A stretch of 64,000 nucleotides of DNA from a virus (IMGVR_UViG_3300037466_002980:298811-362810); one strand, 5' to 3'. Positions 14,360-59,785 are shown, counted from the stretch's first letter. Made by a program: numbers and translations. The notes: generated by a model not told the origin, from the letters alone.

Positions 14360-14451
14360 TGGTGCCCCGAGCCGGACTCGAACCGGCACGCCGCGATCAG
14401 GCAAGCGAGGGATTTTAAGTCCCTTGTGTCTACCAATTTCACCACCGGGGC
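14360..14451 (-). tRNA. tRNA-Leu (anticodon TAA), type II with a long variable arm; CCA is encoded
   Basis: reverse complement reads GCCCCGG TG GTGA AATTGGTAGA CACA AGGGA-CTTAAAA-TCCCT CGCTTGCCTGATCGCGGCGTG CCGG-TTCGAGT-CCGG CTCGGGGC A CCA; cloverleaf folded by hand. Confidence 0.8.
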
Positions 14452-21438: not shown

Positions 21439-21515
<77 letters not shown>

Positions 21516-24025: not shown

Positions 24026-24185
24026 ATTGAGGATATTTCAAACGAAGATATAAAATAGTTTCGGGATTCTCAATTTCGTATTCTGTTAGTATGCCCCATA
24101 TTATTCTACGATTGGCAGAAGATAAAGAACTGAATTCTTTTATTAATTCTTTATCTCTTGTTGGAATTACAAATTTAACCAACAT
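23997..24185 (-). CDS. small protein of the terminal-motif family
   Basis: 'ILYLRLKYPQYEHK'. Confidence 0.45.
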   Translation of the reverse strand: MLVKFVIPTRDKELIKEFSSLSSANRRIIWGILTEYEIENPETILYLRLKYPQYEHKGNKEY

Positions 24186-24963
24186 CTTTAATTAGTCTTT
24201 CTGCATCGGGAATTCTTGTATGTGTATTCTTGCTACCAAGTAGGATAACAATTCTTCTTCCAATTTCAGTCTGTACAATCATTAGGAGACATCCACCAGC
24301 AGGATTAGTGAATCCTGTTTTAGAAAGAAGTACCGCAATTCTAGCTGTAAGCGGATTGGTGTTGTTAACGTGAATTTTCTTATTCTCAGCAACAATTTCC
24401 GCATTTGGCATTCTGGAGATTTCGCCAATTATTTCTTTTCCTGCTGCCGCCTGTATAAGTTTAAGAAGATCGCGAGCAGTGCTAACATTTTCTTTGCTCA
24501 ATCCGGTAGGTTCAACATAATGGGTATTTGCCATTCCGAGTTCGTTCGCTTTGCTATTCATTCTATCAATACAATCATTAAGATTGTTACATAGAATTTG
24601 GGCTGCAAAGTTATCGGATTTTACCAGTGCTAGTGTAAGCAATTCCCTTCGTGTAAGGAAATGAACACTTTGTGGAATACTACTATGAACAGTTCTTGTT
24701 TTAGGAATTTCAATTCTTTCACTAAGATCTTGATCTGAAACAAGAAGTGCTAACATTAATTTGGAGATGGAAGCAATAGGTCTTACTGTATCACTATCCT
24801 GTTCTTTGATTATCTGTCCAGTTTCATCTGCGACAAGAAAGCTTCTTGTACTAAAGACAGGTTTGGAAGGTGTATATCGATGATGATGCCTTCCATGTGC
24901 GAAGGCCGGAATTGTAAATATTGAAGCTATCGCAGCAGCGACAACGATCTTCACCATTGACAT
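24175..24963 (-). CDS. D-alanyl-D-alanine carboxypeptidase/endopeptidase of peptidase family S11 (PBP5/PBP7-like), with a signal peptide
   Basis: SxxK 'SISKLM', SxN 'KSDNF' and KTG 'SKTGFT' motifs; signal peptide 'MSMVKIVVAAAIASIFTIPAFA' (the ORF track start at 24993 is probably too far upstream). Confidence 0.6.
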   Translation of the reverse strand: MSMVKIVVAAAIASIFTIPAFAHGRHHHRYTPSKPVFSTRSFLVADETGQIIKEQDSDTVRPIASISKLMLALLVSDQDLSERIEIPKTRTVHSSIPQSVHFLTRRELLTLALVKSDNFAAQILCNNLNDCIDRMNSKANELGMANTHYVEPTGLSKENVSTARDLLKLIQAAAGKEIIGEISRMPNAEIVAENKKIHVNNTNPLTARIAVLLSKTGFTNPAGGCLLMIVQTEIGRRIVILLGSKNTHTRIPDAERLIKDVG

Positions 24964-24976
24964 AGTATAATATATA

Positions 24977-25342
24977 TCATGTGTCAAGGTCAAAGGTTTT
25001 TGGAATATAGTATCTAATGAATAGATTCTTCTTCACTTCAAAATCCTCATCGGGTCCAAGATTTTGAGTTATGCAGGTTTGCCAAGAAGCTAATATGTTA
25101 TTAGAGATAATACAGAATGCGGTTAAATCCACTTCTTCAATTATATATTCTCTTCGTAATTGTCTGGCTACAAATGGATGTTCATTAGTGGTTTTAGAAA
25201 TAATAGTCCAAACTTTTCCCTTCTGCGAATAATTTTCAAGAAACCTAAATTCTTGATCGGTAAGTAATTGCCAACTTCTTAGAATTAGACTTACTTCTTC
25301 CATTAATTGCCTGTAATGAGCCCCACATCGGGCGGTTGCCAA
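24977..25342 (-). CDS. hypothetical protein
   Basis: 121-aa ORF. Confidence 0.4.
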   Translation of the reverse strand: MATARCGAHYRQLMEEVSLILRSWQLLTDQEFRFLENYSQKGKVWTIISKTTNEHPFVARQLRREYIIEEVDLTAFCIISNNILASWQTCITQNLGPDEDFEVKKNLFIRYYIPKTFDLDT

Positions 25343-33091: not shown

Positions 33092-34288
33092 TTATCGACG
33101 ATTTTGCGGGCTATGCGCATCGGGTTCGTACCAGCATGTCATGCCATGCGGTGCGGTAATGTTATGTCTAGCATCGCCGTGAATGACAAACACACTTTCG
33201 CACCAATCCGGATCGCCCCAGCCGTCGCCGGTATAACCGTCAGTAAACATGATGAATCGCTCGGGTTGCAATTCATTGTCTTTCATGTATTGCCAATTCA
33301 CATCAAACGATGTGCCGCCGCCACCATGAATCTCATATGTATCGATGTCGTCGAGATTTTCTGCCGTAAAGCGTTGGTGGTTGTAAACACGAGTATCGAA
33401 ACACCAGACATCCAGGTCGAAGTCGGTAAACTGCTCCATAATGCCTTTCACTTCAGTAAGAAGGTCTCGAAGCATATCGTCCGACATAGAACCCGAACAG
33501 TCAATTGAAACTGCTGCCTTAACTTTTTCTTGATCCTTCTGTCCCGGAAGGTAGAAACCAGCGGATTGCGCCTTACGCGAACAACGCATCCAGGTAAAGT
33601 CATTCTTCAGCATCGATTTCAGGCGCATCTGAAGAATTTCTCGCCAATCCATTTGCGGATCAGTGAGGTCCTTCAACATACGACGCACACCAGCCGGCGT
33701 ATTTCCAGCACCAGCTGCCTTGGCGGCCTGCATCACCGCAGCACGGATCTCATCCGACAGCATACGGCGTTCTTCTTCGGTCATCGGTTCACCCTTGCCA
33801 TCTCCAGGTTCCAGGTGAATATCGAAATCACCAAAGTTGCCAGCATTGGGGTCATCAAGAAGTTTTTCGTAAACTTCTTCTGCGAACATACCCTTGTATT
33901 TCGGATCGAAGCAAGGAGTTACGCCGGATGTCTTGGGATCGGGAAGTTTGCCGATATTGTGTTCGTGCAGTTCCCAATTGATAACAAAGTCTGCCGCTGC
34001 GTTCCACAGTTTCGGCTTACGGCTACCACGACGACTCATGTGGTCATACACGCAGTGTTCCACTTCGTGTGCCACAAGGAATACGGTTTCTGGTTTGGTC
34101 AACTTCAGAATGAAGTTACGGTTGTAGTAGAAGTAACGTCCGTCTGTTGCAGCAGTCGGACACCAATCCTCTTCAGTCGCATCTTTCAGAATAAGACGTG
34201 TTGCCAACGTCCCCCAGAAAGGCTGTTGAAGCAGCAACGAAATACGTGCCCGCGTCAGTTGCTCTTTGGCTTTTTCCTTGTCATCCAT
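33092..34288 (-). CDS. putative HExxH metallopeptidase domain fused to a vWA domain (DUF2201-type partner of MoxR-like ATPases)
   Basis: 'VAHEVEHCVYDH' HExxH motif in the N-terminal half; C-terminal 'VSIDCSGSM' (DxSxS MIDAS motif) typical of vWA; GC-rich island; the plus-strand ORFs on it are antisense. Confidence 0.55.
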   Translation of the reverse strand: MDDKEKAKEQLTRARISLLLQQPFWGTLATRLILKDATEEDWCPTAATDGRYFYYNRNFILKLTKPETVFLVAHEVEHCVYDHMSRRGSRKPKLWNAAADFVINWELHEHNIGKLPDPKTSGVTPCFDPKYKGMFAEEVYEKLLDDPNAGNFGDFDIHLEPGDGKGEPMTEEERRMLSDEIRAAVMQAAKAAGAGNTPAGVRRMLKDLTDPQMDWREILQMRLKSMLKNDFTWMRCSRKAQSAGFYLPGQKDQEKVKAAVSIDCSGSMSDDMLRDLLTEVKGIMEQFTDFDLDVWCFDTRVYNHQRFTAENLDDIDTYEIHGGGGTSFDVNWQYMKDNELQPERFIMFTDGYTGDGWGDPDWCESVFVIHGDARHNITAPHGMTCWYEPDAHSPQNRR

Positions 34289-40982: not shown

Positions 40983-41948
40983 ATGAAAAATATGAAATTA
41001 CATCAATGTCAAAATTCCGAATGTCAGAATATAGCATTAAAGGACAGATATGGAAATTATAAAAGGTACTGTTCTGAGGAATGTCGGAATGCTACGACTA
41101 AACTAAAATACAAAGACACTTATTCTAGGAAAGACATGGTTGCTATACTTAAAAAACGCGAAAAAACCAATATGTCTAAATACGACAAGGCCAACGTAGC
41201 ACAGACAGATCAAGTACGCGAGACTCTTCGTAAAACTACTACAGCCACAATTGATATCCGTTTACAGAAAACTAAAGAAACGAATATGCGTAATTATGGA
41301 GTTGAAAGTACGAATTCTCTACCAGAGATTAAAGAGAAGAAAAAGAAAACTTTTCAAGAAAGGTACGGTGTTGACCATCAACTTCAAATACCAGAGATAG
41401 CTTCCAAGGTTTCTGAAAAGAATTCAGAAAATGCACAAGAGAGATTGGCTGTTGCCGCCATTACTAAGGAAGAGAGGTATGGTGATAAGAATTATAATAA
41501 TAGGGAGAAGTACGTTGAAACCTGTTTAGAGAAATTTGGAGTGGAAAATCCATCACAAGATCCTGGCGTACATCAGAAGAAGCTCGAAAGCGATTATCGA
41601 TCTAAGGAATATATCTTCCCTTCTGGTAGAAGAGTAATAGTTCAAGGACACGAACCACAGGGAATTAACTTATTATTGAAATCTTATAAGGAAGAAGATC
41701 TCATGATTGGAATTACAGAAGTTCCCAGAATTAAATACGGAAATGGAAAAGGAAGAGGTGCATATTATTTTCCCGATATCTATATTCCAAAGGAAAATCT
41801 AATAATAGAAGTCAAGTCCCAACATACCTATAATGATAATACACCAAAACATCATCAGAAGGCAAGGGCGTGTATCGAATTAGGATATAAATTTAAATTT
41901 TTGGTTATCGAAAAGAATGGTTCATATTATTATTTAGATATTACATAA
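40983..41948 (+). CDS. zinc-finger protein with tandem ~30-aa 'xRYGVxxxxQxPEIxxK' repeats and a C-terminal PD-(D/E)xK-like nuclease motif; possibly a free-standing endonuclease
   Basis: N-terminal 'CQNSECQ...CSEECRN'; three or more 'RNYGVESTNSLPEIKEK' / 'ERYGVDHQLQIPEIASK' repeats; C-terminal 'YFPDIYIPKENLIIEVKSQ'; sole plus-strand gene between minus-strand arrays. Confidence 0.5.
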   Translation: MKNMKLHQCQNSECQNIALKDRYGNYKRYCSEECRNATTKLKYKDTYSRKDMVAILKKREKTNMSKYDKANVAQTDQVRETLRKTTTATIDIRLQKTKETNMRNYGVESTNSLPEIKEKKKKTFQERYGVDHQLQIPEIASKVSEKNSENAQERLAVAAITKEERYGDKNYNNREKYVETCLEKFGVENPSQDPGVHQKKLESDYRSKEYIFPSGRRVIVQGHEPQGINLLLKSYKEEDLMIGITEVPRIKYGNGKGRGAYYFPDIYIPKENLIIEVKSQHTYNDNTPKHHQKARACIELGYKFKFLVIEKNGSYYYLDIT

Positions 41949-42018: not shown

Positions 42019-43230
42019 TCAATCTTCGAGAATATACTTCCCGAACTTGTCATGGAAGGCCTTGAACGTCTTCATCTCACGGTGGTTGATCGGAAGTGCG
42101 TAATCACGGAGGGCCGTCTTCGCACCGAGCACGATCATTTCCGTCTGGAAGTTGTCCATCATGTACTGGAAGAAGAAGTCCACGCACTTGTGCCAATCGG
42201 ACATCGTGAACTTGTCATCCTTGTCGTTCGCCTTCGTACGACCCAGCCATTCCTGCAGCGTGTAGCACATGGAGATGGTGAGCGAGTACATGGCGCTCAG
42301 GTCCTTGACGTTCAGCTTCGTTTCCTTGCCCGTCAGCACATCTTCCGGCTTCGGCATCTTTGCCGCCACCTTCCGGTGTTGCGCGAACTCGGTTGCGAGA
42401 CCTTCACCAACCGTGCCGGCCACAAGTGCCGTGTTCATCGATTCGGGAAGTTCGTCCGTGATCAGCTGCGAAACGAACACCCAGGACCGCGGAGTTGCGA
42501 ACGCCTTGTCCGGGCTCTTCGGATCGAAGTTGAACAGCTTCTGCTTGTGATGGGAAAGGAAGCCCACCACGTCAGCGTGAACGCGAGCCATGATGGCCCA
42601 CTTCTGCCAGTCGTCGAAGTTAGACGTCATCTCGATGTGAACGAGACGGTTTGCCAACGGACTGGGCATACGGTAGGTAACACCCTTGTCACTGTCTCGG
42701 TTGCCGGCGCACACCATCGACACGCCATCCGGCAACTTGTATTCGCCGACGCGACGGTTCAGGATCAGCTGGTAAGCCGCGGCCTGCACGCTCGGAGGAG
42801 CAGCGTTGATTTCATCCAGGAACAGAATTGCTTTGCTGAATTCTTGTGCAATCTTCAGCGTTTCCAGCTTCTGGGTTTTTTCGTGGATCTCGTCTTCGTC
42901 CTTGCCTTCGATGGCCAGCGAGAGTGCCTTCTTGGCACGATTGATATCACGTTCAGTGATGGTTTGCGGCAGGTCCGCCGGTTGAGCCCAACGCATCGTC
43001 TGCGTGGCGGGATCATAGAACGGAATGCCCTTGATGTCGGTCGGTTCCAACAGAAGCAGACGCATGTCGATAACGGGGCGCTTTTGTTCCGCACCGATTT
43101 CAGCAATCAGTTCGGACTTGCCAATGCCGGGGGGTCCCCAAATCATTGCGGGGCGTCCAACCCGCATACAACGTTGCAGAAGTGTTTTTACGTCACGGGG
43201 ACGTTCTGCGCGATGAGTGTCAATAGCCAT
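42019..43230 (-). CDS. MoxR-like AAA+ ATPase of the AAA_5 / CbbQ / CobS-like clade
   Basis: Walker A 'GPPGIGKS', Walker B 'ILFLDEIN' and sensor 'VCAGNRD'; AGGAG Shine-Dalgarno; GC-rich island; the 442-aa plus-strand ORF across it is antisense. Confidence 0.65.
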   Translation of the reverse strand: MAIDTHRAERPRDVKTLLQRCMRVGRPAMIWGPPGIGKSELIAEIGAEQKRPVIDMRLLLLEPTDIKGIPFYDPATQTMRWAQPADLPQTITERDINRAKKALSLAIEGKDEDEIHEKTQKLETLKIAQEFSKAILFLDEINAAPPSVQAAAYQLILNRRVGEYKLPDGVSMVCAGNRDSDKGVTYRMPSPLANRLVHIEMTSNFDDWQKWAIMARVHADVVGFLSHHKQKLFNFDPKSPDKAFATPRSWVFVSQLITDELPESMNTALVAGTVGEGLATEFAQHRKVAAKMPKPEDVLTGKETKLNVKDLSAMYSLTISMCYTLQEWLGRTKANDKDDKFTMSDWHKCVDFFFQYMMDNFQTEMIVLGAKTALRDYALPINHREMKTFKAFHDKFGKYILED

Positions 43231-43655: not shown

Positions 43656-43946
43656 TTATTTTAGGTGTTCTGATACAGGATTGAAATTGTGATTAAATCT
43701 GATAAGGAATGCAGTTCGATCTTCTTCAGTCTCAAATATTACACTTGCAGGCGAATCGTCGGAAATGTCTCCTATGAATTTTGCATGAAATATTGCCAAT
43801 ACATCGAAAATACAATTGTCTCTGTATGTACCATTTTCTCTATTAGTTTCTGTTATAAAATTTATTTCAACGTAGTCGATAAAATTTTTCCACCAATTTG
43901 GACATTGATCGAATTCACCATTTAATTCTAAACTATATTCATTCAT
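43656..43946 (-). CDS. family E small protein
   Basis: 'CPNWWKNFIDY...FETEEDRTAFLIRFNHNF'. Confidence 0.55.
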   Translation of the reverse strand: MNEYSLELNGEFDQCPNWWKNFIDYVEINFITETNRENGTYRDNCIFDVLAIFHAKFIGDISDDSPASVIFETEEDRTAFLIRFNHNFNPVSEHLK

Positions 43947-44212
43947 TTTATTATTCTTTCACTATAAAATTTATCTGGAAATTTTAATTTAAATATCATA
44001 TAATCTTCGTTGGATTTAAACCAAATTCTATATCCTAATCCAGGATATACTCCAAAATAGAAATTATCTTCTATATTCTTATGTAAATATTCAAGAAAAA
44101 AATCGCTGAAGAAACCAATACCGAAAAGTGCAGAGGAGTATCGAGATGATAGGAAGATATGTTCTGAATCGGTCCTATAATATTTCTGTTTTAGAAAAAA
44201 CTTATCTTCCAT
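43943..44212 (-). CDS. family E small protein
   Basis: 'FKSNEDYMIFKLKFPDKF'. Confidence 0.5.
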   Translation of the reverse strand: MEDKFFLKQKYYRTDSEHIFLSSRYSSALFGIGFFSDFFLEYLHKNIEDNFYFGVYPGLGYRIWFKSNEDYMIFKLKFPDKFYSERIIK

Positions 44213-44471
44213 TATATTTTAATTTGAAGGCTAGATAATCTTCCTCGGTTTCGAAAATTATGTAATATTTGTTTCCACCCTCAATGATATGTTCACAATG
44301 ATATTTCTTTAATTCTATATCTCGATAATACTCATACTCTTTCATATAATCTCTATTTGATCTCAGAAATAGATTATGTTCTTTCTGAATATAACGATTG
44401 AAATTGTCCCAGAGATCAATTAATGTATCACCTACCGGGAATAAATTTATCTTTACTTTGTTACCAGCCAT
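44202..44471 (-). CDS. family E small protein
   Basis: 'FETEEDYLAFKLKYNGR'. Confidence 0.55.
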   Translation of the reverse strand: MAGNKVKINLFPVGDTLIDLWDNFNRYIQKEHNLFLRSNRDYMKEYEYYRDIELKKYHCEHIIEGGNKYYIIFETEEDYLAFKLKYNGR

Positions 44472-44721
44472 AACTTAACCTGAATAATACTAGATCTTCT
44501 TCGTGTTCAAAAATTAGATAAAATCTTGGAAACTCAATAATTTTACAGTGAAATGTGGTCAATATTTCGTCTCTTATTTTTCTAAATTTTCCTACGTAAT
44601 TGATATCAGAAGGATCTAACATAAATTCTTTCTGAAGACGAACAATAAAATTTTCCCAGAAATTCTCTAACATTCCGTTTTTGAATAAATCCAATTCGAT
44701 TGATGTTTTATTTTCTAGCAT
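44461..44721 (-). CDS. family E small protein
   Basis: 'FEHEEDLVLFRLSYGW'. Confidence 0.55.
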   Translation of the reverse strand: MLENKTSIELDLFKNGMLENFWENFIVRLQKEFMLDPSDINYVGKFRKIRDEILTTFHCKIIEFPRFYLIFEHEEDLVLFRLSYGW

Positions 44722-44986
44722 ATTCTACATTTACGTACGGAGAATCATATCTTAACATAAAAACAAGTTGCAGTTCACTATTCTTGAAATTTACCGTAGC
44801 ATGTTGAGTATAACCAAAGTCATAATATGAAGCTTCATATTTCTCAAATTCTTTAACAATATATTCGGTCCTAGCATGACCATTGATTTTCTTAAAATTG
44901 TTGTGTTCTTTGAAAATATCATTAATAAAATTTTTCCACCAATTAGGACAATCGTTAAAGGTAGAAGGAATGGTGAAGCATGTCAT
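44708..44986 (-). CDS. family E small protein
   Basis: 'CPNWWKNFINDI...FKNSELQLVFMLRYDSPY'. Confidence 0.55.
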   Translation of the reverse strand: MTCFTIPSTFNDCPNWWKNFINDIFKEHNNFKKINGHARTEYIVKEFEKYEASYYDFGYTQHATVNFKNSELQLVFMLRYDSPYVNVEYARK

Positions 44987-45234
44987 GAAAATTTTAATTT
45001 GAATACCAATAGGTCTTCTTCAGTTTCAAATTCAACAGAATATCCAGAATTCGAATCATGGATAAATTTAGCATTATATTTTTCTAATTCAAGATCAATT
45101 CCATTCCTGAATATTTTGTTTTCTTCATTTCCGTATGTGTTTACCAAATTATATAATTCTAGAATATATTTTTCAAAATTTTGCCACTCGACAGGACAGT
45201 TCCTTAAATATGTAGCAAGTTTAAAAATAACCAT
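44983..45234 (-). CDS. family E small protein
   Basis: 'CPVEWQNFEKYI...FETEEDLLVFKLKFS'. Confidence 0.55.
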   Translation of the reverse strand: MVIFKLATYLRNCPVEWQNFEKYILELYNLVNTYGNEENKIFRNGIDLELEKYNAKFIHDSNSGYSVEFETEEDLLVFKLKFS

Positions 45235-45484
45235 TATGAAAATTTTAATTTGAATGCTAATAAGTCTTCTTTAGTTTCAAATTCAACAGAATATCCAAAA
45301 TTCGAATCATGGATAAATTTCGCTCTATATTTTTTTAGTTCACCATTAAACATTCTTCCCCAGGTTGTTATCTGTTCTTTATCTGCATTGTGTATATCTA
45401 TAGACAATTTTTCTGAAATATAGCTTTCAAAATTTTGCCATTCTATTGGGCATCTATGGTTGGGGCAAGATTAAATATAACCAT
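45235..45484 (-). pseudogene. frameshifted paralog of the gene at 44983..45234
   Basis: starts 'MVIFNLAPTIDAQ*' and continues in another frame as 'HRCPIEWQNFESY...FETKEDLLAFKLKFS'; there is a 4-nt deletion relative to its neighbour, and this is why no ORF of 60 aa or more is listed here. Confidence 0.5.
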
Positions 45485-45711
45485 TATGAAAATCTCAATT
45501 TAAAAATCATAGCTTCTTCTTCTGAATCGAACATTAGACATGGACTCTTATCTTGAACATAATGCATAGATGCACTAAATTTTCGAAGCTCCTTGTCCCT
45601 ATAATTATAAAATTCTGGTGTTGCAAGAGATTTGTTGTTCAGAAGAAAATTTACAAATCTACTCCAATATGGATATGCGTGTCCCTTGTTATAGATTTCT
45701 AGAATATACAT
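45484..45711 (-). CDS. family E small protein
   Basis: 'FDSEEEAMIFKLRFS'. Confidence 0.55.
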   Translation of the reverse strand: MYILEIYNKGHAYPYWSRFVNFLLNNKSLATPEFYNYRDKELRKFSASMHYVQDKSPCLMFDSEEEAMIFKLRFS

Positions 45712-45941
45712 TATGAATATTTTATTTTGAATAAGATTGCATCGTTTTCTGTATCGAATTCTATTACAGGATTTTCATTATAACAAAAAAGCATGCGACC
45801 ATTAAATTCGGAAACAAGCGTATCTCGTATGATAAAAAGACTTACATTCTTCTTTTCTGCTTCCCAAAGAACATAATCTGAAAATCGAATCCAGTATGCT
45901 AAAAAATTACTCTCTGTATCACAAATTTCTAGAATATACAT
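45711..45941 (-). CDS. family E small protein
   Basis: 'FDTENDAILFKIKYS'. Confidence 0.55.
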   Translation of the reverse strand: MYILEICDTESNFLAYWIRFSDYVLWEAEKKNVSLFIIRDTLVSEFNGRMLFCYNENPVIEFDTENDAILFKIKYS

Positions 45942-45944
45942 TTT

Positions 45945-46241
45945 CTAAGTGCCAGACACACAATCATCAATTGTTTTATATTTCAATTTAAAAATTAGAA
46001 AATCATGTTCGTTAATAAACCAAATTTTGGTATTATCTAATTGAAAGGGTGTCTGCCATATCCAATCATTTCCAAATTGGGCATCAAATTCAATTCTATC
46101 TTTCTCATTTATTCTGTGATCAAGATATAGATGTGGAAAATTATAATCTAGATATGCTACTGCATCTCTAGGCCTATCTCGGAGATCACGGTCAATTCTG
46201 AAATTCTCAAGTTTTGTCATGATACACAGATTATCAATCAT
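45945..46241 (-). CDS. small protein of the terminal-motif family
   Basis: 'INEHDFLIFKLKYKTIDD'. Confidence 0.5.
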   Translation of the reverse strand: MIDNLCIMTKLENFRIDRDLRDRPRDAVAYLDYNFPHLYLDHRINEKDRIEFDAQFGNDWIWQTPFQLDNTKIWFINEHDFLIFKLKYKTIDDCVSGT

Positions 46242-46686: not shown

Positions 46687-47076
46687 TTAGAATCTCTTAA
46701 TTCTGTTCCTAAGGCTTTCCAACTTCTTTTCAAGTTGTTCCGCTTCTTCCTCTAATTTGAGTTTTTCTTCTACGGTGTTCTTGTCGATTTTCTTGGCATG
46801 AATTGCTTCAATACGACCACCGCCGCCCCATTGCCAAAAACGTGGTAATTCAACTGCATAGGAAATAACATCTCCTAATTTTCCTTCTACTGTTTCTAGC
46901 AGAGGAGTTACATGCGAACCACCCAAATCGCAATTTGGATCCTCACCAAAAATCTGCCAAAGACCATGTTGAGAAAGAGAATATTCCTCAAGGAGACCCT
47001 TTGCAGAATATCCTTCGAGGAATTTTAATACCCGTTCAGCGTGTTTTTGTTCCGACATTTGAACCTTCTTTAGCAA
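46687..47076 (-). CDS. hypothetical protein with a C-terminal coiled coil
   Basis: 129-aa ORF; 'EEKLKLEEEAEQLEKKLESLRNRIKRF'. Confidence 0.45.
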   Translation of the reverse strand: MLKKVQMSEQKHAERVLKFLEGYSAKGLLEEYSLSQHGLWQIFGEDPNCDLGGSHVTPLLETVEGKLGDVISYAVELPRFWQWGGGGRIEAIHAKKIDKNTVEEKLKLEEEAEQLEKKLESLRNRIKRF

Positions 47077-47108
47077 TTATAAATTAAACTAATTGAAGGC
47101 TCAAATAA

Positions 47109-47726
47109 TCAAATTGCGAAACATGCGCTGGCAATCAAGATGGTAAGAATAGTAAGACCCAGCGTAACCCAAACCATCAACCATTCACCATCGTGGTCTA
47201 GATCATGGAAAGACTTAGGTACCCGGACCTGTTTCGTTCCTTTATACAGACCCCAGAAGAGTGTGTAATCCATTGAAACGAATTTTTCAGTGAAAAGTCG
47301 GAGATAGAAAGTCCTAGCAAGGGTTAGGCCGATCACCAAAACCAACAGTCCAAATAGAATGTGAACTATACCAGTCCCTGCTACCTTCCAGATAATTAGT
47401 GCTGCGGTAAGCCGGCCTGCATCGGTGTGCAGGAAATCATTTACAGTAACGCCAAGCTCCTTTGCAGCGATATTCAGCGCCTTAGCGAATCCTTCGGCTG
47501 CAACGGCTGCCTGATTTCCCCAGGTAGCGGCCAAGGTTGCCACAGAACTTACATCCTTCAATGTGGAAGGAGAGTCCTGTTTAGCCTTTTCTGCCGCTTT
47601 CTGAGCAGCAATAGCCTTCAATTCAGCAACATCGGAATCTGAAAGATTTCCTGTATCGATTACAGTTGTGCTGGCGAATGCAGCAATCGAAGCTGCCATC
47701 AAGGTTGCGGCAATAAGTAGTTTCAT
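47109..47726 (-). CDS. secreted or membrane protein with a signal peptide and C-terminal transmembrane helices
   Basis: start trimmed to 'MKLLIAATLMAASIAAFA', which has an AGGAG Shine-Dalgarno 7 nt upstream; hydrophobic C-terminal helices. Confidence 0.5.
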   Translation of the reverse strand: MKLLIAATLMAASIAAFASTTVIDTGNLSDSDVAELKAIAAQKAAEKAKQDSPSTLKDVSSVATLAATWGNQAAVAAEGFAKALNIAAKELGVTVNDFLHTDAGRLTAALIIWKVAGTGIVHILFGLLVLVIGLTLARTFYLRLFTEKFVSMDYTLFWGLYKGTKQVRVPKSFHDLDHDGEWLMVWVTLGLTILTILIASACFAI

Positions 47727-47737
47727 TTGATCTCCTA

Positions 47738-48838
47738 TTAGAATGCAATATCTTGCCAATTTCGTTGCGCATATTCCTTACGTTTGATATTGACTACGAT
47801 ATTGGATCCACCTTCTGTAAAAACATAAGTGAAGACACCGTTATCGTAATCCACATTTCGCAGGTTATGTGCATTGATTGGAACTTCCTCCCAGGAACTA
47901 TCATTATCGAGTTCGTCCTGGTTTTCAGACGTTCCTTCCTTAACATCAAGGTAGGAAATAGTCAGCTCTTCTTGAGCAATCGGAATACCGCGGATTTGGT
48001 TTGGCGAAATATGTTCCACCTTCTTTCCGTTACGCATGATTTCAATCTCATGAAGAACGGATCCTGCATCGACGGGTTTTGCGTTGAGCATTTCCATTGC
48101 TTGCTTCGGACTTTCGTCGTATCGATTCATTTCTTCCACAAGAGCCTTCAACATATCAAAGTTGAAGGAATCGAACAAAATGGGAAGCCTGGCCATCTGA
48201 TCGATATGCTTCTGAAGTTCAGGCTTAAGGTTATCAGTTGCATATTCACGAATGAAGGTCGCATCCAGTCCCTTATAATCCAGCATGTAATAAATACGCC
48301 CTGGACGATTGCGCATATGATGACTGACTCGATATTTGTCATTTACAGTCAGAATGAACATCTTCTTGGAAGGATACATACCATCTAGAAGAGTAAGGAT
48401 AAGTTCCTGTTGTTCAGTATCGTACACCTTTTCAAATTCGTCAAAGATGACAATACATGCTTCATCGATCTTCTGAATGAAGGTATTAAATTCTTCGCCG
48501 CAGAAGGGTGTATTAATTACGATTGTCGAAATGCCATCCTTCAGTGCCTTCTCGGAGATTGATTTTGCAAGGAGTGTTTTTCCACTACCTTTTTCGCCAT
48601 TAAGGAGAACACCGGTGCAATGCGGACGATCTTTGAATGTGTTAAGAATTCTATCAGCTTGTTGGGTTGCGTTTCCGTAGATCTTTCCGGTAATCTTGAA
48701 ATCTTCGATAATCTCAAGGTACAATCCTTTCATGGATTGTTTCACTGTATAGGTTCCTACAGGAAGACTGTCCCTAAGATCTTGTGCTTCTTTCAGGGTC
48801 GGCCAAAGAATATTCTGTTCTTTTAGGTAATAACTCAT
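47738..48838 (-). CDS. AAA+ ATPase
   Basis: Walker A 'GEKGSGKT' and Walker B 'IVIFDEFEK'; AAGGAAA Shine-Dalgarno. Confidence 0.6.
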   Translation of the reverse strand: MSYYLKEQNILWPTLKEAQDLRDSLPVGTYTVKQSMKGLYLEIIEDFKITGKIYGNATQQADRILNTFKDRPHCTGVLLNGEKGSGKTLLAKSISEKALKDGISTIVINTPFCGEEFNTFIQKIDEACIVIFDEFEKVYDTEQQELILTLLDGMYPSKKMFILTVNDKYRVSHHMRNRPGRIYYMLDYKGLDATFIREYATDNLKPELQKHIDQMARLPILFDSFNFDMLKALVEEMNRYDESPKQAMEMLNAKPVDAGSVLHEIEIMRNGKKVEHISPNQIRGIPIAQEELTISYLDVKEGTSENQDELDNDSSWEEVPINAHNLRNVDYDNGVFTYVFTEGGSNIVVNIKRKEYAQRNWQDIAF

Positions 48839-48858
48839 TTATAATTTCCTTTTTTAAA

Positions 48859-49158
48859 TTAATCCACAATCCAAATATAGGCAGGTACCATTGAGGTATA
48901 ACATACCTGTTCGTCGTATTCGGGTTTGTCATCAGCATAATCCATATGCTGATCGTATTCGTCTTCTTGGATGGCCCTGAGATCTTTCAATTCGGGATCA
49001 TTTAGTTCTGTTGTGACATCCCAATTACCCCGTAACAATCCATCATCGAAAAGTTGCAGGGCAATGGTGTCTCGATGCGAAGAATAATCCAGACCACGCC
49101 CCTTCAAGGCAGTTATTACCTCTTCCGCGGCCCAGATTGCTTCATTGCACAATCTCAT
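48859..49158 (-). CDS. acidic hypothetical protein
   Basis: 99-aa ORF between the ATPase gene and the vWA gene. Confidence 0.4.
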   Translation of the reverse strand: MRLCNEAIWAAEEVITALKGRGLDYSSHRDTIALQLFDDGLLRGNWDVTTELNDPELKDLRAIQEDEYDQHMDYADDKPEYDEQVCYTSMVPAYIWIVD

Positions 49159-49169
49159 ATGTTCACCGA

Positions 49170-50210
49170 TTAGGCCGGCATTGCCGTCCAGATCATCAGG
49201 TTGGTACCTTTCGTGAGCTTACGATTAACGGAAGTGGATTGCACGAAGATTTCGTAATCTCCGTGATCTCCGGGGACAAGCTTCACTTCGCCGTATTGCG
49301 GAAGTCCCAGAAGGTCGCGTGCTGCAAATCCGCTGTAGACGGCACCGGTATTGGTGTCACGAATAGCGATTTGTTTATAATCCTGGACCTTCTCGGTCTT
49401 GTTCAGTTGGTAGAAAGCGCAACCCTTAGTGAAATGCACGCCCTGGGCTTCCACGAAATCACGGATTTCCACGCCATCGTTACGATGATCCACTTCGTAG
49501 ACATCCACTTGATTGGAAATGTCCACCAGGTTCTTTTTCAGTTCCTTTACCGTCACATCGCTGATATCTGCGTAGAACTTGTCCGTGCTGCGAACACCGG
49601 ATGCTCTCGCAGCATAGAAACCACGCATTGCAGATTTCGTTGCCGCAGTCGATTTTTCCATGCCCGCGGTGCTGGTATCCCATTCCAGGATATTGCCGGG
49701 TGCAATGCCATAACGTACAAGTTCTCTCGCGCCGCCTCTCGGAACACGGAAAGTGAATGTCCAACGATCCGTCTTCTGGAGTTCCTTGATTTTCTTGGAA
49801 AGTGAATTTCCGTTCCATTTTACCGAGCTGTTTTCTTCACCATCGGTAATGACCATAACTACGAAAGACACATCGGGATCATTTGCATCCGGAACGCTTT
49901 GAAGCTGTTCAATCAGATCACCGATACTGTCGAACAGCGGAGTCGAATAACCATCGGTTACGTAGTCTGAAGATTTCATTTCCTTCAGACGATTAATACT
50001 GGAATTGGTACTTTCACGTACCACCAATGCACCCCTACCATCATGGCCACCGACACCGCATTTTACCACACTCACTACGGTGTCGATATCATGTTCGTCG
50101 GCGCCTTCGCGAATGGAAAGGATCAGCTCGTTGTAATCCTTTGCGGCTGCGGAAGCGATGGGCAGCATCGAACGGCTATGATCACGGCTGATTCCGAAGT
50201 AGTTTTTCAT
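49170..50210 (-). CDS. vWA (von Willebrand factor A) domain protein
   Basis: MIDAS motifs 'DHSRSM' (DxSxS) and 'VITDGEEN'; GC-rich; the plus-strand and alternative-frame ORFs overlapping it are artefacts. Confidence 0.55.
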   Translation of the reverse strand: MKNYFGISRDHSRSMLPIASAAAKDYNELILSIREGADEHDIDTVVSVVKCGVGGHDGRGALVVRESTNSSINRLKEMKSSDYVTDGYSTPLFDSIGDLIEQLQSVPDANDPDVSFVVMVITDGEENSSVKWNGNSLSKKIKELQKTDRWTFTFRVPRGGARELVRYGIAPGNILEWDTSTAGMEKSTAATKSAMRGFYAARASGVRSTDKFYADISDVTVKELKKNLVDISNQVDVYEVDHRNDGVEIRDFVEAQGVHFTKGCAFYQLNKTEKVQDYKQIAIRDTNTGAVYSGFAARDLLGLPQYGEVKLVPGDHGDYEIFVQSTSVNRKLTKGTNLMIWTAMPA

Positions 50211-50283
50211 CTCAAAATCCTTTCAGGTAAGTGTGTAATGGCAAAATATATAATAGCTGTATTCCAAGAAGTCGTCAAATGGC

Positions 50284-50736
50284 TTATTGAATCCAGAGTA
50301 TTACAGGAACTGTAACAGTTTGTTCAATTATCTCTCTTACAATTTCCCAATTTCCACCGCCTAGTCCACATCCAATAAGTGGAATATGGATTTCTTTCTT
50401 AAAACTAGCATACCAATCACAATCAAGCGATTGTTGAATTAGTTTGAAGCAATTTTCAATTGCATCATAACTTACATGTCTTCGGTCAGTTCCAAAGTAT
50501 TCCTGGGTAATGGCATTCCAGACTAGGATTCCCTCTTCTGCGCGCACTGGATAAACATCTCCTACCGTTAGGCCTTTCTTTTCAAAGATGTCACGATAAT
50601 CTTGATAAACGTGTGGCCATTTATCTTTAATGGCTTTCGCCACACCAGATCCCATTACTCCTTGCGCATTACAACCATGCACAATATGCCCGGAAGGAAT
50701 ATCAAGAAGGCTACCGGTCTTCTTTTCAATTTTCAT
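50284..50736 (-). CDS. macro-domain (ADP-ribose-binding / ADP-ribosylhydrolase) protein
   Basis: 'GCNAQGVMGSGVAKAI' and 'IGCGLGGGNW' macro-domain glycine motifs; the start is taken as the internal M ('MKIEKK'), which has a GGAAA ribosome-binding site; the upstream ATG at 50826 would add a hydrophobic N-terminus. Confidence 0.55.
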   Translation of the reverse strand: MKIEKKTGSLLDIPSGHIVHGCNAQGVMGSGVAKAIKDKWPHVYQDYRDIFEKKGLTVGDVYPVRAEEGILVWNAITQEYFGTDRRHVSYDAIENCFKLIQQSLDCDWYASFKKEIHIPLIGCGLGGGNWEIVREIIEQTVTVPVILWIQ

Positions 50737-50913
50737 ATTATTTCCAGAAACGAATATATCTGTAATAGAGATAACGGAAAGTATTCCAATTAAGGAAAAG
50801 CAGACAACCGCCGATGATTCCAGCAATTATATCTGCACGAAAAATAAAGAAGAAAAGATTTAGAAGGGTAACAATTACCACAAACCAAGTCCAAAAATCA
50901 TTCTTAGGAGGCA

Positions 50914-51339
50914 TCATTTTATTTCCTTCACTTTCATAATAGCGTTTCGTTGATCGAATTTTGTTTTTGCTTTAGTCCACATTTCCCAATCAATCTCAAC
51001 CGGGCAATCATCGGATAGCGGATCAAAAATAATTGCTCCGGAATCTCTACAATTGTGTTTTGCATCATCGATTCCATTGATATGATGTTCTCCGAGCATC
51101 GAATATGCCTTTCCCGACCACCATACACGGACTCGATTCTCCATCCAATCCATAGAAAATGAATTTTCACATAATCCATTCCATGTTTCGATTATCGTAT
51201 TGTCGGGTCTTGAAATTTGCACCTTTTTCAAAACCACTCGCAGAGGAAGTAATCTTGAAAGATTGTATTTCAGGACTGTCGCAGTAGATTCTTCAGTATT
51301 CATTTGAATTCGACCTTCTTGCAATATTTTCCCTTCCAT
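50914..51339 (-). CDS. hypothetical protein
   Basis: 141-aa ORF. Confidence 0.4.
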   Translation of the reverse strand: MEGKILQEGRIQMNTEESTATVLKYNLSRLLPLRVVLKKVQISRPDNTIIETWNGLCENSFSMDWMENRVRVWWSGKAYSMLGEHHINGIDDAKHNCRDSGAIIFDPLSDDCPVEIDWEMWTKAKTKFDQRNAIMKVKEIK

Positions 51340-51731
51340 GATTGATATGCTTCCTTAACGAAGCTATCAACGGGAGTGTCAGAAACAGTATTAACAATAA
51401 TTTTCTTGGTTTTTCTAAACAACCAAGGAATTCCATAGAATATAAAGAGTAGAATAAGAGAAAAGCATAGAATTCCAAGAACCGCTACGCCAACATCACT
51501 AAACATGAATGTCTTATACAAGATGCTGAAATATACACCAAGAGCAAATTCTACAAGAAGATATTCAATTGTAGTTATAGCTACTAGAAGGACAAAACAA
51601 ACAAGAACACCAAAAATCACATGCCAGGTGTAGGCACAGATATTCTGCTTTTCATCATCTCGTTCATTGAAGCCGGTCATCTGAGCTAATTTATAATGAA
51701 TGCTCTTGCGATTCAACTTAACAGTTTTCAT
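51300..51731 (-). CDS. multi-pass membrane protein
   Basis: three or more hydrophobic helices. Confidence 0.45.
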   Translation of the reverse strand: MKTVKLNRKSIHYKLAQMTGFNERDDEKQNICAYTWHVIFGVLVCFVLLVAITTIEYLLVEFALGVYFSILYKTFMFSDVGVAVLGILCFSLILLFIFYGIPWLFRKTKKIIVNTVSDTPVDSFVKEAYQSWKGKYCKKVEFK

Positions 51732-58570: not shown

Positions 58571-59785
58571 TTAGCCTTTCACACATAAAACTTGTTTTAG
58601 GGTATGCACAACTTCTACAAGATCTTCTTGTGCTTTCATAACCTCATCGATATCCTTGTATGCAGCTGGAATTTCATCAATCACAGCTTCATCCTTTCTG
58701 CATTCGATTCCAGCAGTCTGTTCTTCAAGTGCAGCAATATCGAAAAGTTTCTTAGCTTGATTACGGCTCATTCTTCTTCCTGCTCCGTGAGAACAAGAAC
58801 AATATGAATCGGCACAACCTTTACCTTTTACAATAAAGGATTTAGCGCCCATTGAACCTGGAATAATTCCCAGTTGTCCAAAATTGGCAGAAACTGCACC
58901 TTTTCTTGTAACCCACATTCCTTCTCCATTGTGTTCTTCCCACGATGTGAAATTGTGGTGACAGTTAACTACCTCGCCAAGAATTTTTAACGTAGGAAAT
59001 TTTCTCTTCAATCCAGCCACAACAAGATTCATCATTGTATCACGATTGAAACGAGCATAATTCTGTGCCCAAGTCATTGCTTCGATATAATCATCGAATT
59101 CTTTGGTTCCTTCGTCGAGCCATGCTAAATCCTGATCAGGGAGACCCCAATCTCTTTTCGCAGCTTGTTCCTTAGCTAATTGGATAGCGACCTCGCCTAT
59201 TTGATTACCAATGCCGCGAGATCCGGAATGGAGCATAATCCAAACTCTATTTTCTGAGTCTAGGCATAACTCAATGAAATGGTTACCGCCACCAAGTGTA
59301 CCAATTTGTCTTCCGATTCTCTTTTCATCGGCACGACCTAGCTTTTCTTTCATTCCAAGTGTTTCCCATTGATCCATTGTCTTTCTTAGATTCTTCCTAA
59401 GAATATCAGCATATGGACCCGACACAGAAGGAATTCCTGCCTTATGTTCATTAAAACCAACGGGAACATCTCTTTCGATTTGATGTCTTATTGATAATAA
59501 AGATTCTGGTAAATCATCTGCAGTAAGGTTGGTCATGGCAGCACACATTCCGCAACCAATGTCAACACCAACGGCAGCGGGAATGATAGCAGAACGTGTC
59601 GGAATAACGGAACCCACAGTGGCACCCTTACCAGCATGAACATCTGGCATGATAGCGATATGTCCTGCAAGGATAGGAACCTGCGAAATATTCATGATTT
59701 GCTGAAGAGCTGCCTCTTCAACATCCATGCTTCCTACCCACATTTTTACATTTTCAATTTCCATTTTTAACCTTTTAGTTTCCAA
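58571..59785 (-). CDS. rtcB: RNA-splicing ligase RtcB (joins 3'-phosphate or 2',3'-cyclic phosphate ends to 5'-OH ends)
   Basis: hallmark metal- and GTP-binding motifs 'MPDVHAGKG', 'GGGNHFIE', 'CHHNF' and 'SCSHGAGR'; 404 aa. Confidence 0.85.
   Translation of the reverse strand: METKRLKMEIENVKMWVGSMDVEEAALQQIMNISQVPILAGHIAIMPDVHAGKGATVGSVIPTRSAIIPAAVGVDIGCGMCAAMTNLTADDLPESLLSIRHQIERDVPVGFNEHKAGIPSVSGPYADILRKNLRKTMDQWETLGMKEKLGRADEKRIGRQIGTLGGGNHFIELCLDSENRVWIMLHSGSRGIGNQIGEVAIQLAKEQAAKRDWGLPDQDLAWLDEGTKEFDDYIEAMTWAQNYARFNRDTMMNLVVAGLKRKFPTLKILGEVVNCHHNFTSWEEHNGEGMWVTRKGAVSANFGQLGIIPGSMGAKSFIVKGKGCADSYCSCSHGAGRRMSRNQAKKLFDIAALEEQTAGIECRKDEAVIDEIPAAYKDIDEVMKAQEDLVEVVHTLKQVLCVKG

Follow-up and report, generated by a model that had tools for sequence, protein, structure and literature searches.

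The subject of this study is a block of six genes on the minus strand of a 64-kb window of phage DNA (IMGVR_UViG_3300037466_002980:298811-362810). All positions are counted from the first letter of this window, and the open reading frames (ORFs) were checked by translation. An earlier note, made from the sequence alone, had read the block (46687-50736) as a cluster in which an AAA+ ATPase, a vWA protein and a macro-domain protein form one anti-defence or ADP-ribose-linked system. Such an AAA+/vWA/macro machine, if true, would represent a new kind of system in phages. The genes themselves are as described there: six minus-strand ORFs are present, and every AAA+, vWA and macro motif that had been quoted is found in the translations. 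Comparison with related phages points elsewhere. We consider the block to be probably, though by no means certainly, a mosaic of accessory genes that are independent of one another, a mobile vWA gene having inserted between a macro gene and an ATPase gene that are habitual neighbours.

Read from the upstream end, the block opens with macro150 (50284..50736, minus strand, as for all six genes), a stand-alone macro-domain protein of 150 aa of the BT1257/SCO6735/Poa1p-like kind. It is followed by vWA346 (49170..50210), which has an N-terminal vWA domain and a beta-rich C-terminal domain; by acid99 (48859..49158), a small acidic protein; by AAA366 (47738..48838), a phage-specific, classic-clade AAA+ ATPase; by mem205 (47109..47726), a membrane protein with a signal-peptide-like N-terminus; and by cc129 (46687..47076), a small protein with a C-terminal coil-like tail. 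From the vWA346 gene through the mem205 gene the intergenic gaps are 11-20 nt. The gap between the macro150 and vWA346 genes is 73 nt and holds a sigma-70-like promoter match (50250..50278, minus strand; TTGACG, 17 nt, TATTAT), which is a consensus match alone; promoter-like sites in the region are not above shuffles (20 versus 14.8 +/- 3.8), nor is the count from a terminator scan of the region. The vWA346, acid99, AAA366 and mem205 genes are probably co-transcribed here, and this co-transcription is likely to be an accident of insertion and not a sign of joint function.

Three other metagenome contigs carry the block in nearly identical form, with protein identities of 95-100%, and the genes are judged to be real because of these copies and because vWA346 and AAA366 belong to large families. 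No cultured phage matched at the DNA level in megablast searches of 4.3 kb and 25 kb against INPHARED. The phage setting assumed from the start is supported: the window is part of an uncultured phage genome of ~360 kb, and the block is probably a piece of a plastic accessory-gene region in it.

Among the small proteins, mem205 has hydrophobic stretches at residues 1-23 (the N-terminal segment), 106-145 and 180-205, and its gene has AGGAG 7 nt before the ATG, which fits the signal peptide and transmembrane character proposed for it and confirms the Shine-Dalgarno sequence; it matches phrog_19575 (E 1.2e-22). The acidic character of acid99 is borne out (pI 4.1), and the protein has no Pfam, PHROG, NCBIfam or PADLOC match. 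Among the compared loci (contigs, numbered L), L043 alone carries it apart from the window's own phage (L011-L013), and there it is 7 kb from the vWA346 gene. Of cc129, for which a coiled coil had been proposed, the C-terminal ~40 residues look coil-like and the rest does not. A more likely start for it is the ATG at 47058, which gives 123 aa and is the one that gene callers picked on contig L011; it matches phrog_33851 (E 1e-23) and, weakly, DUF5320, and it was not found beside AAA366 in relatives. Neither mem205 nor cc129 has a PADLOC or NCBIfam match, and the same is true of vWA346.

The ATPase and the vWA protein

AAA366 and vWA346 had been likened to the MoxR-VWA and RavA-ViaA machines. 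The AAA366 translation contains GEKGSGKT as its Walker A motif and IVIFDEFEK, with the Walker B FDEFEK. An N-terminal beta domain (residues 1-45) is followed by the AAA core (57-250) and a C-terminal beta domain (260-355). The core has an aromatic-x-Gly pore loop (F112-C-G114) and a second region of homology (SRH) with the motif NRPGR (N177-R181), in which R178 and R181 are invariant. Across 29-32 sequences, Walker A and B, [FYWH]-x-G114 and NRPGR are invariant or nearly so. The protein matches Pfam AAA (PF00004, E 6.7e-9) and phrog_2376 (E 2.6e-87); its AAA_5 match is just 0.0018 over 32 P-loop residues, under the cut-off, and there is no AAA_3 match. When a profile of the family was compared with the PDB, the matches were the p97 D2 domain (p97/Cdc48), NVL and Afg2. 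An AlphaFold2 model (predicted local distance difference test, 83.8) shows the N-terminus as a small four-stranded beta domain, and a Foldseek search with this model gave Bcs1, YjoB, FtsH, proteasomal Rpt and p97 about equally, with the Bcs1 AAA domain and YjoB best.

AAA366 is thus a classic-clade AAA protein (p97/FtsH/Bcs1-like) and not a MoxR protein, and the analogy with MoxR-VWA machines falls. It is a probable ring-forming unfoldase or remodeller of proteins, driven by ATP and with the motifs of the p97/FtsH/Bcs1 clade, and it may act at the membrane together with mem205. With the unfoldases and translocases of that clade (p97/Cdc48 D2, FtsH, Rpt, Bcs1 and Bacillus subtilis YjoB) it shares Walker A and B, the pore loop, the SRH arginines and the predicted fold; it differs from them in having its own N- and C-terminal beta domains, in lacking a protease, a transmembrane segment and a second AAA ring, and in its near-exclusive occurrence in phages. 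The family has >4900 homologues and is present in many large myoviruses. In 185,579 prokaryote species genomes it is near-absent, with seven matches, all on contigs of metagenome-assembled genomes (MAGs; 2.4-63 kb). We considered these as bacterial homologues and rejected them, as the seven contigs look like binned phage DNA, and the family is essentially restricted to phages.

The vWA protein carries the motifs DHSRSM and TDGEEN, and its metal ion-dependent adhesion site (MIDAS) is complete. The vWA domain occupies residues ~1-200 and is followed at ~220-346 by a conserved, beta-rich C-terminal domain with an invariant QSTSxNRK. Its score against Pfam VWA, 13.9 bits, is below the gathering score of 23.8, so that of the three domain calls made earlier those of the macro domain and the AAA core pass Pfam (2e-10 and 6.7e-9), whereas the vWA call is upheld on structure and MIDAS but not on the Pfam score. 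The family has 1474 homologues, and a scan of IMG/VR yielded 420 confirmed candidate stretches. With its complete MIDAS, its conserved C-terminal domain and >1400 members, it constitutes a well-supported stand-alone family of phage vWA proteins.

Besides the window's own phage, we compared 89 loci that carry a vWA346 homologue. They comprise 80 IMG/VR loci with up to 10 kb per side, the cultured phages Cr30, Myrna, BUCT-ZZ01 and Quantum, and several metagenome contigs. The vWA346 gene adjoins AAA366 in the own phage and in L015 only; the adjacency is missing from the other 88 (80 IMG/VR contigs, four cultured phages and four other metagenome contigs), including the five closest IMG/VR relatives (61-67% identity). 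Clustering of the ORFs within 4 kb of vWA346 gave no genuine neighbour family in more than eight of the 88 loci. In L009, where vWA346 is 69% identical, its gene stands directly before that of another ATPase, AAA403. On the 359-kb contig JAWVGW010000006.1, the vWA346 homologue (in 318917-339945) and the AAA366 homologue (in 127460-140545) are ~190 kb apart. The GC content at third codon positions (GC3) is 0.53 for vWA346, versus 0.28 for macro150 and 0.41 for AAA366. Given the lack of a conserved neighbour and the separate location in relatives, vWA346 is a stand-alone, independently mobile phage gene. Since it has no conserved partner anywhere, its product would be a metal-dependent (MIDAS) binding protein that acts alone. 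Two further relatives, L014 and L016 (NCBI MAG contigs of 359 and 379 kb), have sparse gene calls with long stretches left uncalled, and release-factor (PCRF/RF-1) genes are present in L014; stop codons may be reassigned in these phages.

These observations bear directly on the proposal that vWA346 and AAA366 form a chaperone machine of the MoxR-VWA/RavA-ViaA kind, which together with macro150 and mem205 would make up a single anti-defence or ADP-ribose system. Several features of the locus are in keeping with it: the genes are co-oriented and tightly spaced behind a promoter-like site, the MIDAS of vWA346 is complete, and L015 keeps the order of an upstream macro gene, vWA346, AAA366 and a membrane protein. 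The known pairs of this kind (RavA-ViaA, NorQ-NorD and CbbQ-CbbO) likewise have their AAA+ and MIDAS-bearing vWA genes close together on one strand. However, their ATPases are of the AAA_3/AAA_5 type, whereas AAA366 is classic-clade with an SRH, and its pairing with vWA346 is not conserved: 88 of the 89 other vWA346 loci are without AAA366, none of 80 IMG/VR loci carrying AAA366 has a vWA346 gene nearby, the two genes are far apart on JAWVGW010000006.1, and relatives have the macro gene directly beside AAA366. We therefore regard this proposal as highly improbable. The earlier note had itself named genes never found together in related genomes as the outcome that would count against a joint system, and a single other locus, L015, is close to that outcome.

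Gene order in related phages

What is conserved among close relatives is a different order of genes. In L098-L104, L106, L177, L178 and a 374-kb JGI contig, the macro gene lies upstream of AAA366, either directly or with one or two small ORFs between, and no vWA346 gene intervenes. A mem205 homologue follows AAA366 in eight of the loci with this order, usually within ~1.5 kb; altogether, mem205 homologues were read downstream of AAA366 in L015, L097-L100, L103, L106, L177 and L178. Farther downstream, the close relatives have a 118-aa gene and then AAA403, which is MoxR-like, with its DUF2201 partner. In the window, the vWA346 gene and the acid99 ORF stand between the macro150 and AAA366 genes. 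A macro gene is also found upstream of the vWA346-AAA366-membrane-protein order in L015, from which acid99 is absent. The simplest history is that the vWA346 gene, here together with the orphan acid99, was inserted between macro and AAA366.

The recurrence of a membrane protein behind AAA366 invites another account, in which the ATPase would be a Bcs1-like chaperone or translocase that serves membrane-proximal virion assembly with mem205 and has nothing to do with macro150. The best Foldseek matches, to the Bcs1 AAA domain and YjoB, fit this account, as does the report of 'BCS1 orthologs' across jumbo phages, for which a membrane-proximal assembly role was proposed (PMC7824862), although that family is not confirmed to be the AAA366 family, no accession being given there. 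Between the AAA366 homologue and the mem205 homologue downstream of it, contig L177 (JAWVGW010000006.1, 127460-140545) also has genes for a GroES-like Cpn10 protein, a 413-aa protein and PspA_IM30, a set that hints at a chaperone or membrane-stress theme. On the other side, AAA366 has no Bcs1_N match in Pfam and no transmembrane anchor was detected in it, the structural match to Bcs1 covers the AAA domain only, and the Foldseek E-values are nearly equal for Bcs1, FtsH, Rpt and p97. We judge this account to be rather improbable.

As the comparative data are against an AAA+/vWA/macro machine, there is no new system to catalogue from this locus. All of its parts belong to families that are already catalogued in large phages (PMC7824862), and little in it is new. 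What the locus does illustrate, and clearly, is that an operon-like 'system' can be mimicked when a gene inserts into a plastic part of a large phage genome.

The macro protein and NAD+/ADP-ribose genes

The macro150 protein carries the motifs GVMGSGVA and IGCGLGGG and matches Pfam Macro (PF01661; E 2e-10, 41.1 bits versus a gathering cut-off of 22) over residues 1-118, which is the whole domain. It matches phrog_335 'phosphatase' with E 1e-39. Among solved structures its relatives are BT1257 (2.6e-15) and SCO6735 (3.9e-10), which are much closer than Poa1p (6lfq; E 1e-4, residues 18-101 alone) or Thermus aquaticus DarG. Its neighbours are small ORFs without assignment and the vWA346 gene. Just upstream of its gene are two small hydrophobic proteins (50738-50917, 59 aa, and 51300-51731, 143 aa, both on the minus strand), the larger of which matches phrog_944 'membrane protein' and is kept upstream of the macro gene in several relatives.

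Two counter-defence roles have been published for phage macrodomains, which lends plausibility to the earlier suggestion that macro150 has such a role. A survey of jumbo phages (PMC7824862) is a further precedent for the protein. Adpp is a macro-domain phosphatase of ADP-ribose (ADPR)-1''-phosphate in the NARP1-AP pathway, where it supports NARP1 against aRES (bioRxiv 10.64898/2026.01.28.702374). Like macro150 it is a small stand-alone phage macro protein; macro150 has detectable homology to yeast Poa1p and falls in a PHROG family annotated 'phosphatase'. Unlike Adpp, macro150 is neither in nor beside an Adps-Namat operon: a NadV hidden Markov model (HMM) detected no Nampt/Namat-like ORF anywhere in the 64 kb, and no search was aimed at Adps.

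The second precedent, AdfM, is a DNA ADP-ribosyl glycohydrolase that takes the ADP-ribose placed by DarT2 off thymine in single-stranded DNA and is thereby anti-DarT2 (PMC13309987). Again the protein is a stand-alone phage macrodomain, and macro150 resembles PhiKZ gp104 (27% identity, E 1e-14) as well as the DarG models of PADLOC (E 1e-19, over the macro part only) and NCBIfam. AdfM and DarG2 have a catalytic lysine, whereas macro150 has Gln/Glu where that residue is expected (K80 in T. aquaticus DarG, K78 in PhiKZ): in alignments to 5m31 and PhiKZ gp104, its 'ITQEYF' falls on the PTK motif, 'PTKKHW' or 'PTKDNW'. The Asn of the N-terminal motif is retained. A DarG-like identity, prompted by the PADLOC and NCBIfam matches, was set aside for want of the lysine and because BT1257 and SCO6735 are closer.

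With neither NARP1 neighbours nor the DarG lysine, we therefore infer only that macro150 probably processes an ADP-ribose derivative for counter-defence. It would bind and hydrolyse such a compound, and candidate reactions are the conversion of ADPR-1''-phosphate to ADPR, as by Adpp, or the removal of ADP-ribose from a macromolecule. Either reaction would blunt host NAD+-based or ADP-ribosylating defences.

Genes of NAD+ metabolism also recur near AAA366. To count them, HMMs were built from neighbour clusters and applied to those IMG/VR loci that extend 4 kb or more to either side, with vWA346 loci of the same collection as control. Around AAA366 (45 loci), a macro gene lay within 4 kb in 17, NadV in 14, NadM-Nudix in 10, and any of the three in 22; around vWA346 (60 loci) the corresponding counts were 3, 3, 0 and 3. 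Among the 80 IMG/VR loci compared for AAA366, NadV was within 1 kb of it in 21. The arrangements differ between lineages. T4-like contigs have the order NadM-Nudix, sometimes macro, NadV, AAA366, RIIA and RIIB; Ochrobactrum phage OC has NadV, PnuC and NadR and then AAA366; Microbacterium phage Pumpernickel has an AAA366 homologue followed by a macro gene and RtcB; and phi92-like coliphages have a 33%-identical ATPase 2 kb upstream of a macro gene (AAA, HAD, phosphoribosyltransferase, macro). The last of these could be taken for a NARP1 neighbourhood, a reading that we rejected, as the genes called 'orotate phosphoribosyltransferase' and 'hydrolase' are PRTase_3 (ComF-like) and HAD and not Adps/Namat.

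Of the NAD+ reconstitution operons, NARP2 consists of NadV and NadM-Nudix, and NARP3 of PnuC and NadR (10.1101/2024.02.11.579819; PMC13464706). In many T4-like contigs and in phage OC, an AAA366 homologue comes immediately after these operons. The ATPase is nevertheless no part of the published pathways, a word search of the texts of the NARP2, aRES and AdfM papers found no mention of an ATPase, and NadV and NadM-Nudix genes were not found in the window. In L122, L129, L142, L155, L162, L168 and other T4-like IMG/VR contigs, the macro gene is inside the NARP2 operon (NadM-Nudix, macro, NadV), with the AAA366 homologue and rIIA/rIIB behind it. Macro has been reported with NARP1 only (aRES preprint), and therefore this arrangement of NARP2 with macro may be undescribed.

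The gene neighbourhood of AAA366 is one modest lead, suggestive but no proof of a functional link to NAD+ and ADP-ribose genes. On this basis macro, AAA366 and the membrane protein could be a functional unit in NAD+/ADP-ribose counter-defence, with vWA346 as a passenger, and the unfoldase would act on an ADP-ribose-linked target such as a protein carrying ADP-ribose or an NADase effector of the host. The excess of macro, NadV and NadM-Nudix genes over the control speaks for such a unit, and so does the recurrence of the link in different arrangements and lineages (the relatives of the window's phage, T4-like phages, OC, Pumpernickel and phi92-like phages). The signal nevertheless comes mostly from two related clades, so that shared synteny could account for it, and much of the pattern could be inherited. 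In the T4-like clade AAA366 stays beside rIIA/rIIB with or without the NadV/macro cassette, a picture like that of a semi-core gene with an insertion hot spot upstream of it. In addition, the macro and ATPase genes are ~160 kb apart in GAP32 and Kaldavass, and the tie between macro and AAA366 is one of gene neighbourhood. We hold a functional unit of this kind to be unlikely, if worth keeping in view.

Similarly doubtful is the broader idea that the AAA366 family is an unrecognised accessory component of phage NAD+/ADP-ribose counter-defence, working with the macro enzyme and elsewhere with NARP2/NARP3 genes, while vWA346 is a bystander. One possibility within this idea is that host NADase effectors or ADP-ribosylated proteins would be unfolded or extracted by AAA366, perhaps at the membrane together with mem205. 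In any case, AAA366 represents a widespread AAA+ family, essentially confined to phages, whose members recur next to macro genes and genes of NAD+ salvage, which are a current focus of research on phage-bacteria conflict. A functional link would bring an energy-dependent protein-remodelling step into a field in which only metabolic enzymes and sponges are known so far.

Several points weigh against our preferred explanation, the insertion of a mobile vWA gene into a mosaic of independent genes. The order vWA346, AAA366 and mem205 is kept in L015 at 74%, 54% and 47% identity and is therefore not a very recent accident. The close packing of four genes behind a promoter-like site would permit their co-expression. 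Moreover, in two arrangements the next gene downstream of vWA346 encodes an AAA+ protein (AAA366 here and AAA403 in L009), which is slightly more than we would expect by chance, though all cases are in one plastic region of related phages. Finally, the biochemical roles of the six proteins are predicted, and neither the Adpp nor the AdfM role is established for macro150.

The MoxR-like pair and other genes of the window

The window does contain a genuine pair of a MoxR-like ATPase and a vWA-peptidase, and it is AAA403 with a DUF2201 gene, not AAA366 with vWA346. AAA403 (42019-43230, minus strand) is a MoxR-like AAA+ protein with AAA_3 (28.5 bits) and AAA_5 both above cut-offs, and its metallopeptidase-vWA partner (33092-34288, minus strand) has DUF2201_N and DUF2201. 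Iyer et al. (2021, PMC7824862) described pairs of MoxR and a peptidase-vWA protein in group 2.2 jumbo phages. In L009, L097-L106 and L178, AAA403 and the DUF2201 gene are neighbours or no more than ~2.5 kb apart, whereas here the distance is ~8 kb. The GC3 of AAA403, 0.705, is strikingly high against the GC content of the window (0.358). A DUF7487/homing-endonuclease-like gene (40983-41948), one of very few genes on the plus strand, adjoins AAA403 and lies within the stretch that parts it from the DUF2201 gene; further homing-endonuclease-like genes are present in the window.

Other genes of the window include nine tandem small paralogues (43943-46241, minus strand; 57-98 aa, GC 0.285), whose alignment shows the C-terminal motif F-x-[ST]-E-E-D-x-L-x-F-K-L-K-[FY]. 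A gene for a D-alanyl-D-alanine carboxypeptidase (24175-24993, minus strand; Peptidase_S11, 2.3e-36) and two tRNA genes, tRNA-Leu(taa) at 14360-14451 and tRNA-Arg(tct) at 21439-21515, both on the minus strand, were also found. An RtcB RNA ligase is encoded at 58571-59785 (minus strand; Pfam 2.6e-127), and in L015, L098/L099, L101, L104, L178 and Pumpernickel an RtcB gene likewise lies within a few kb of that for the AAA366 homologue.

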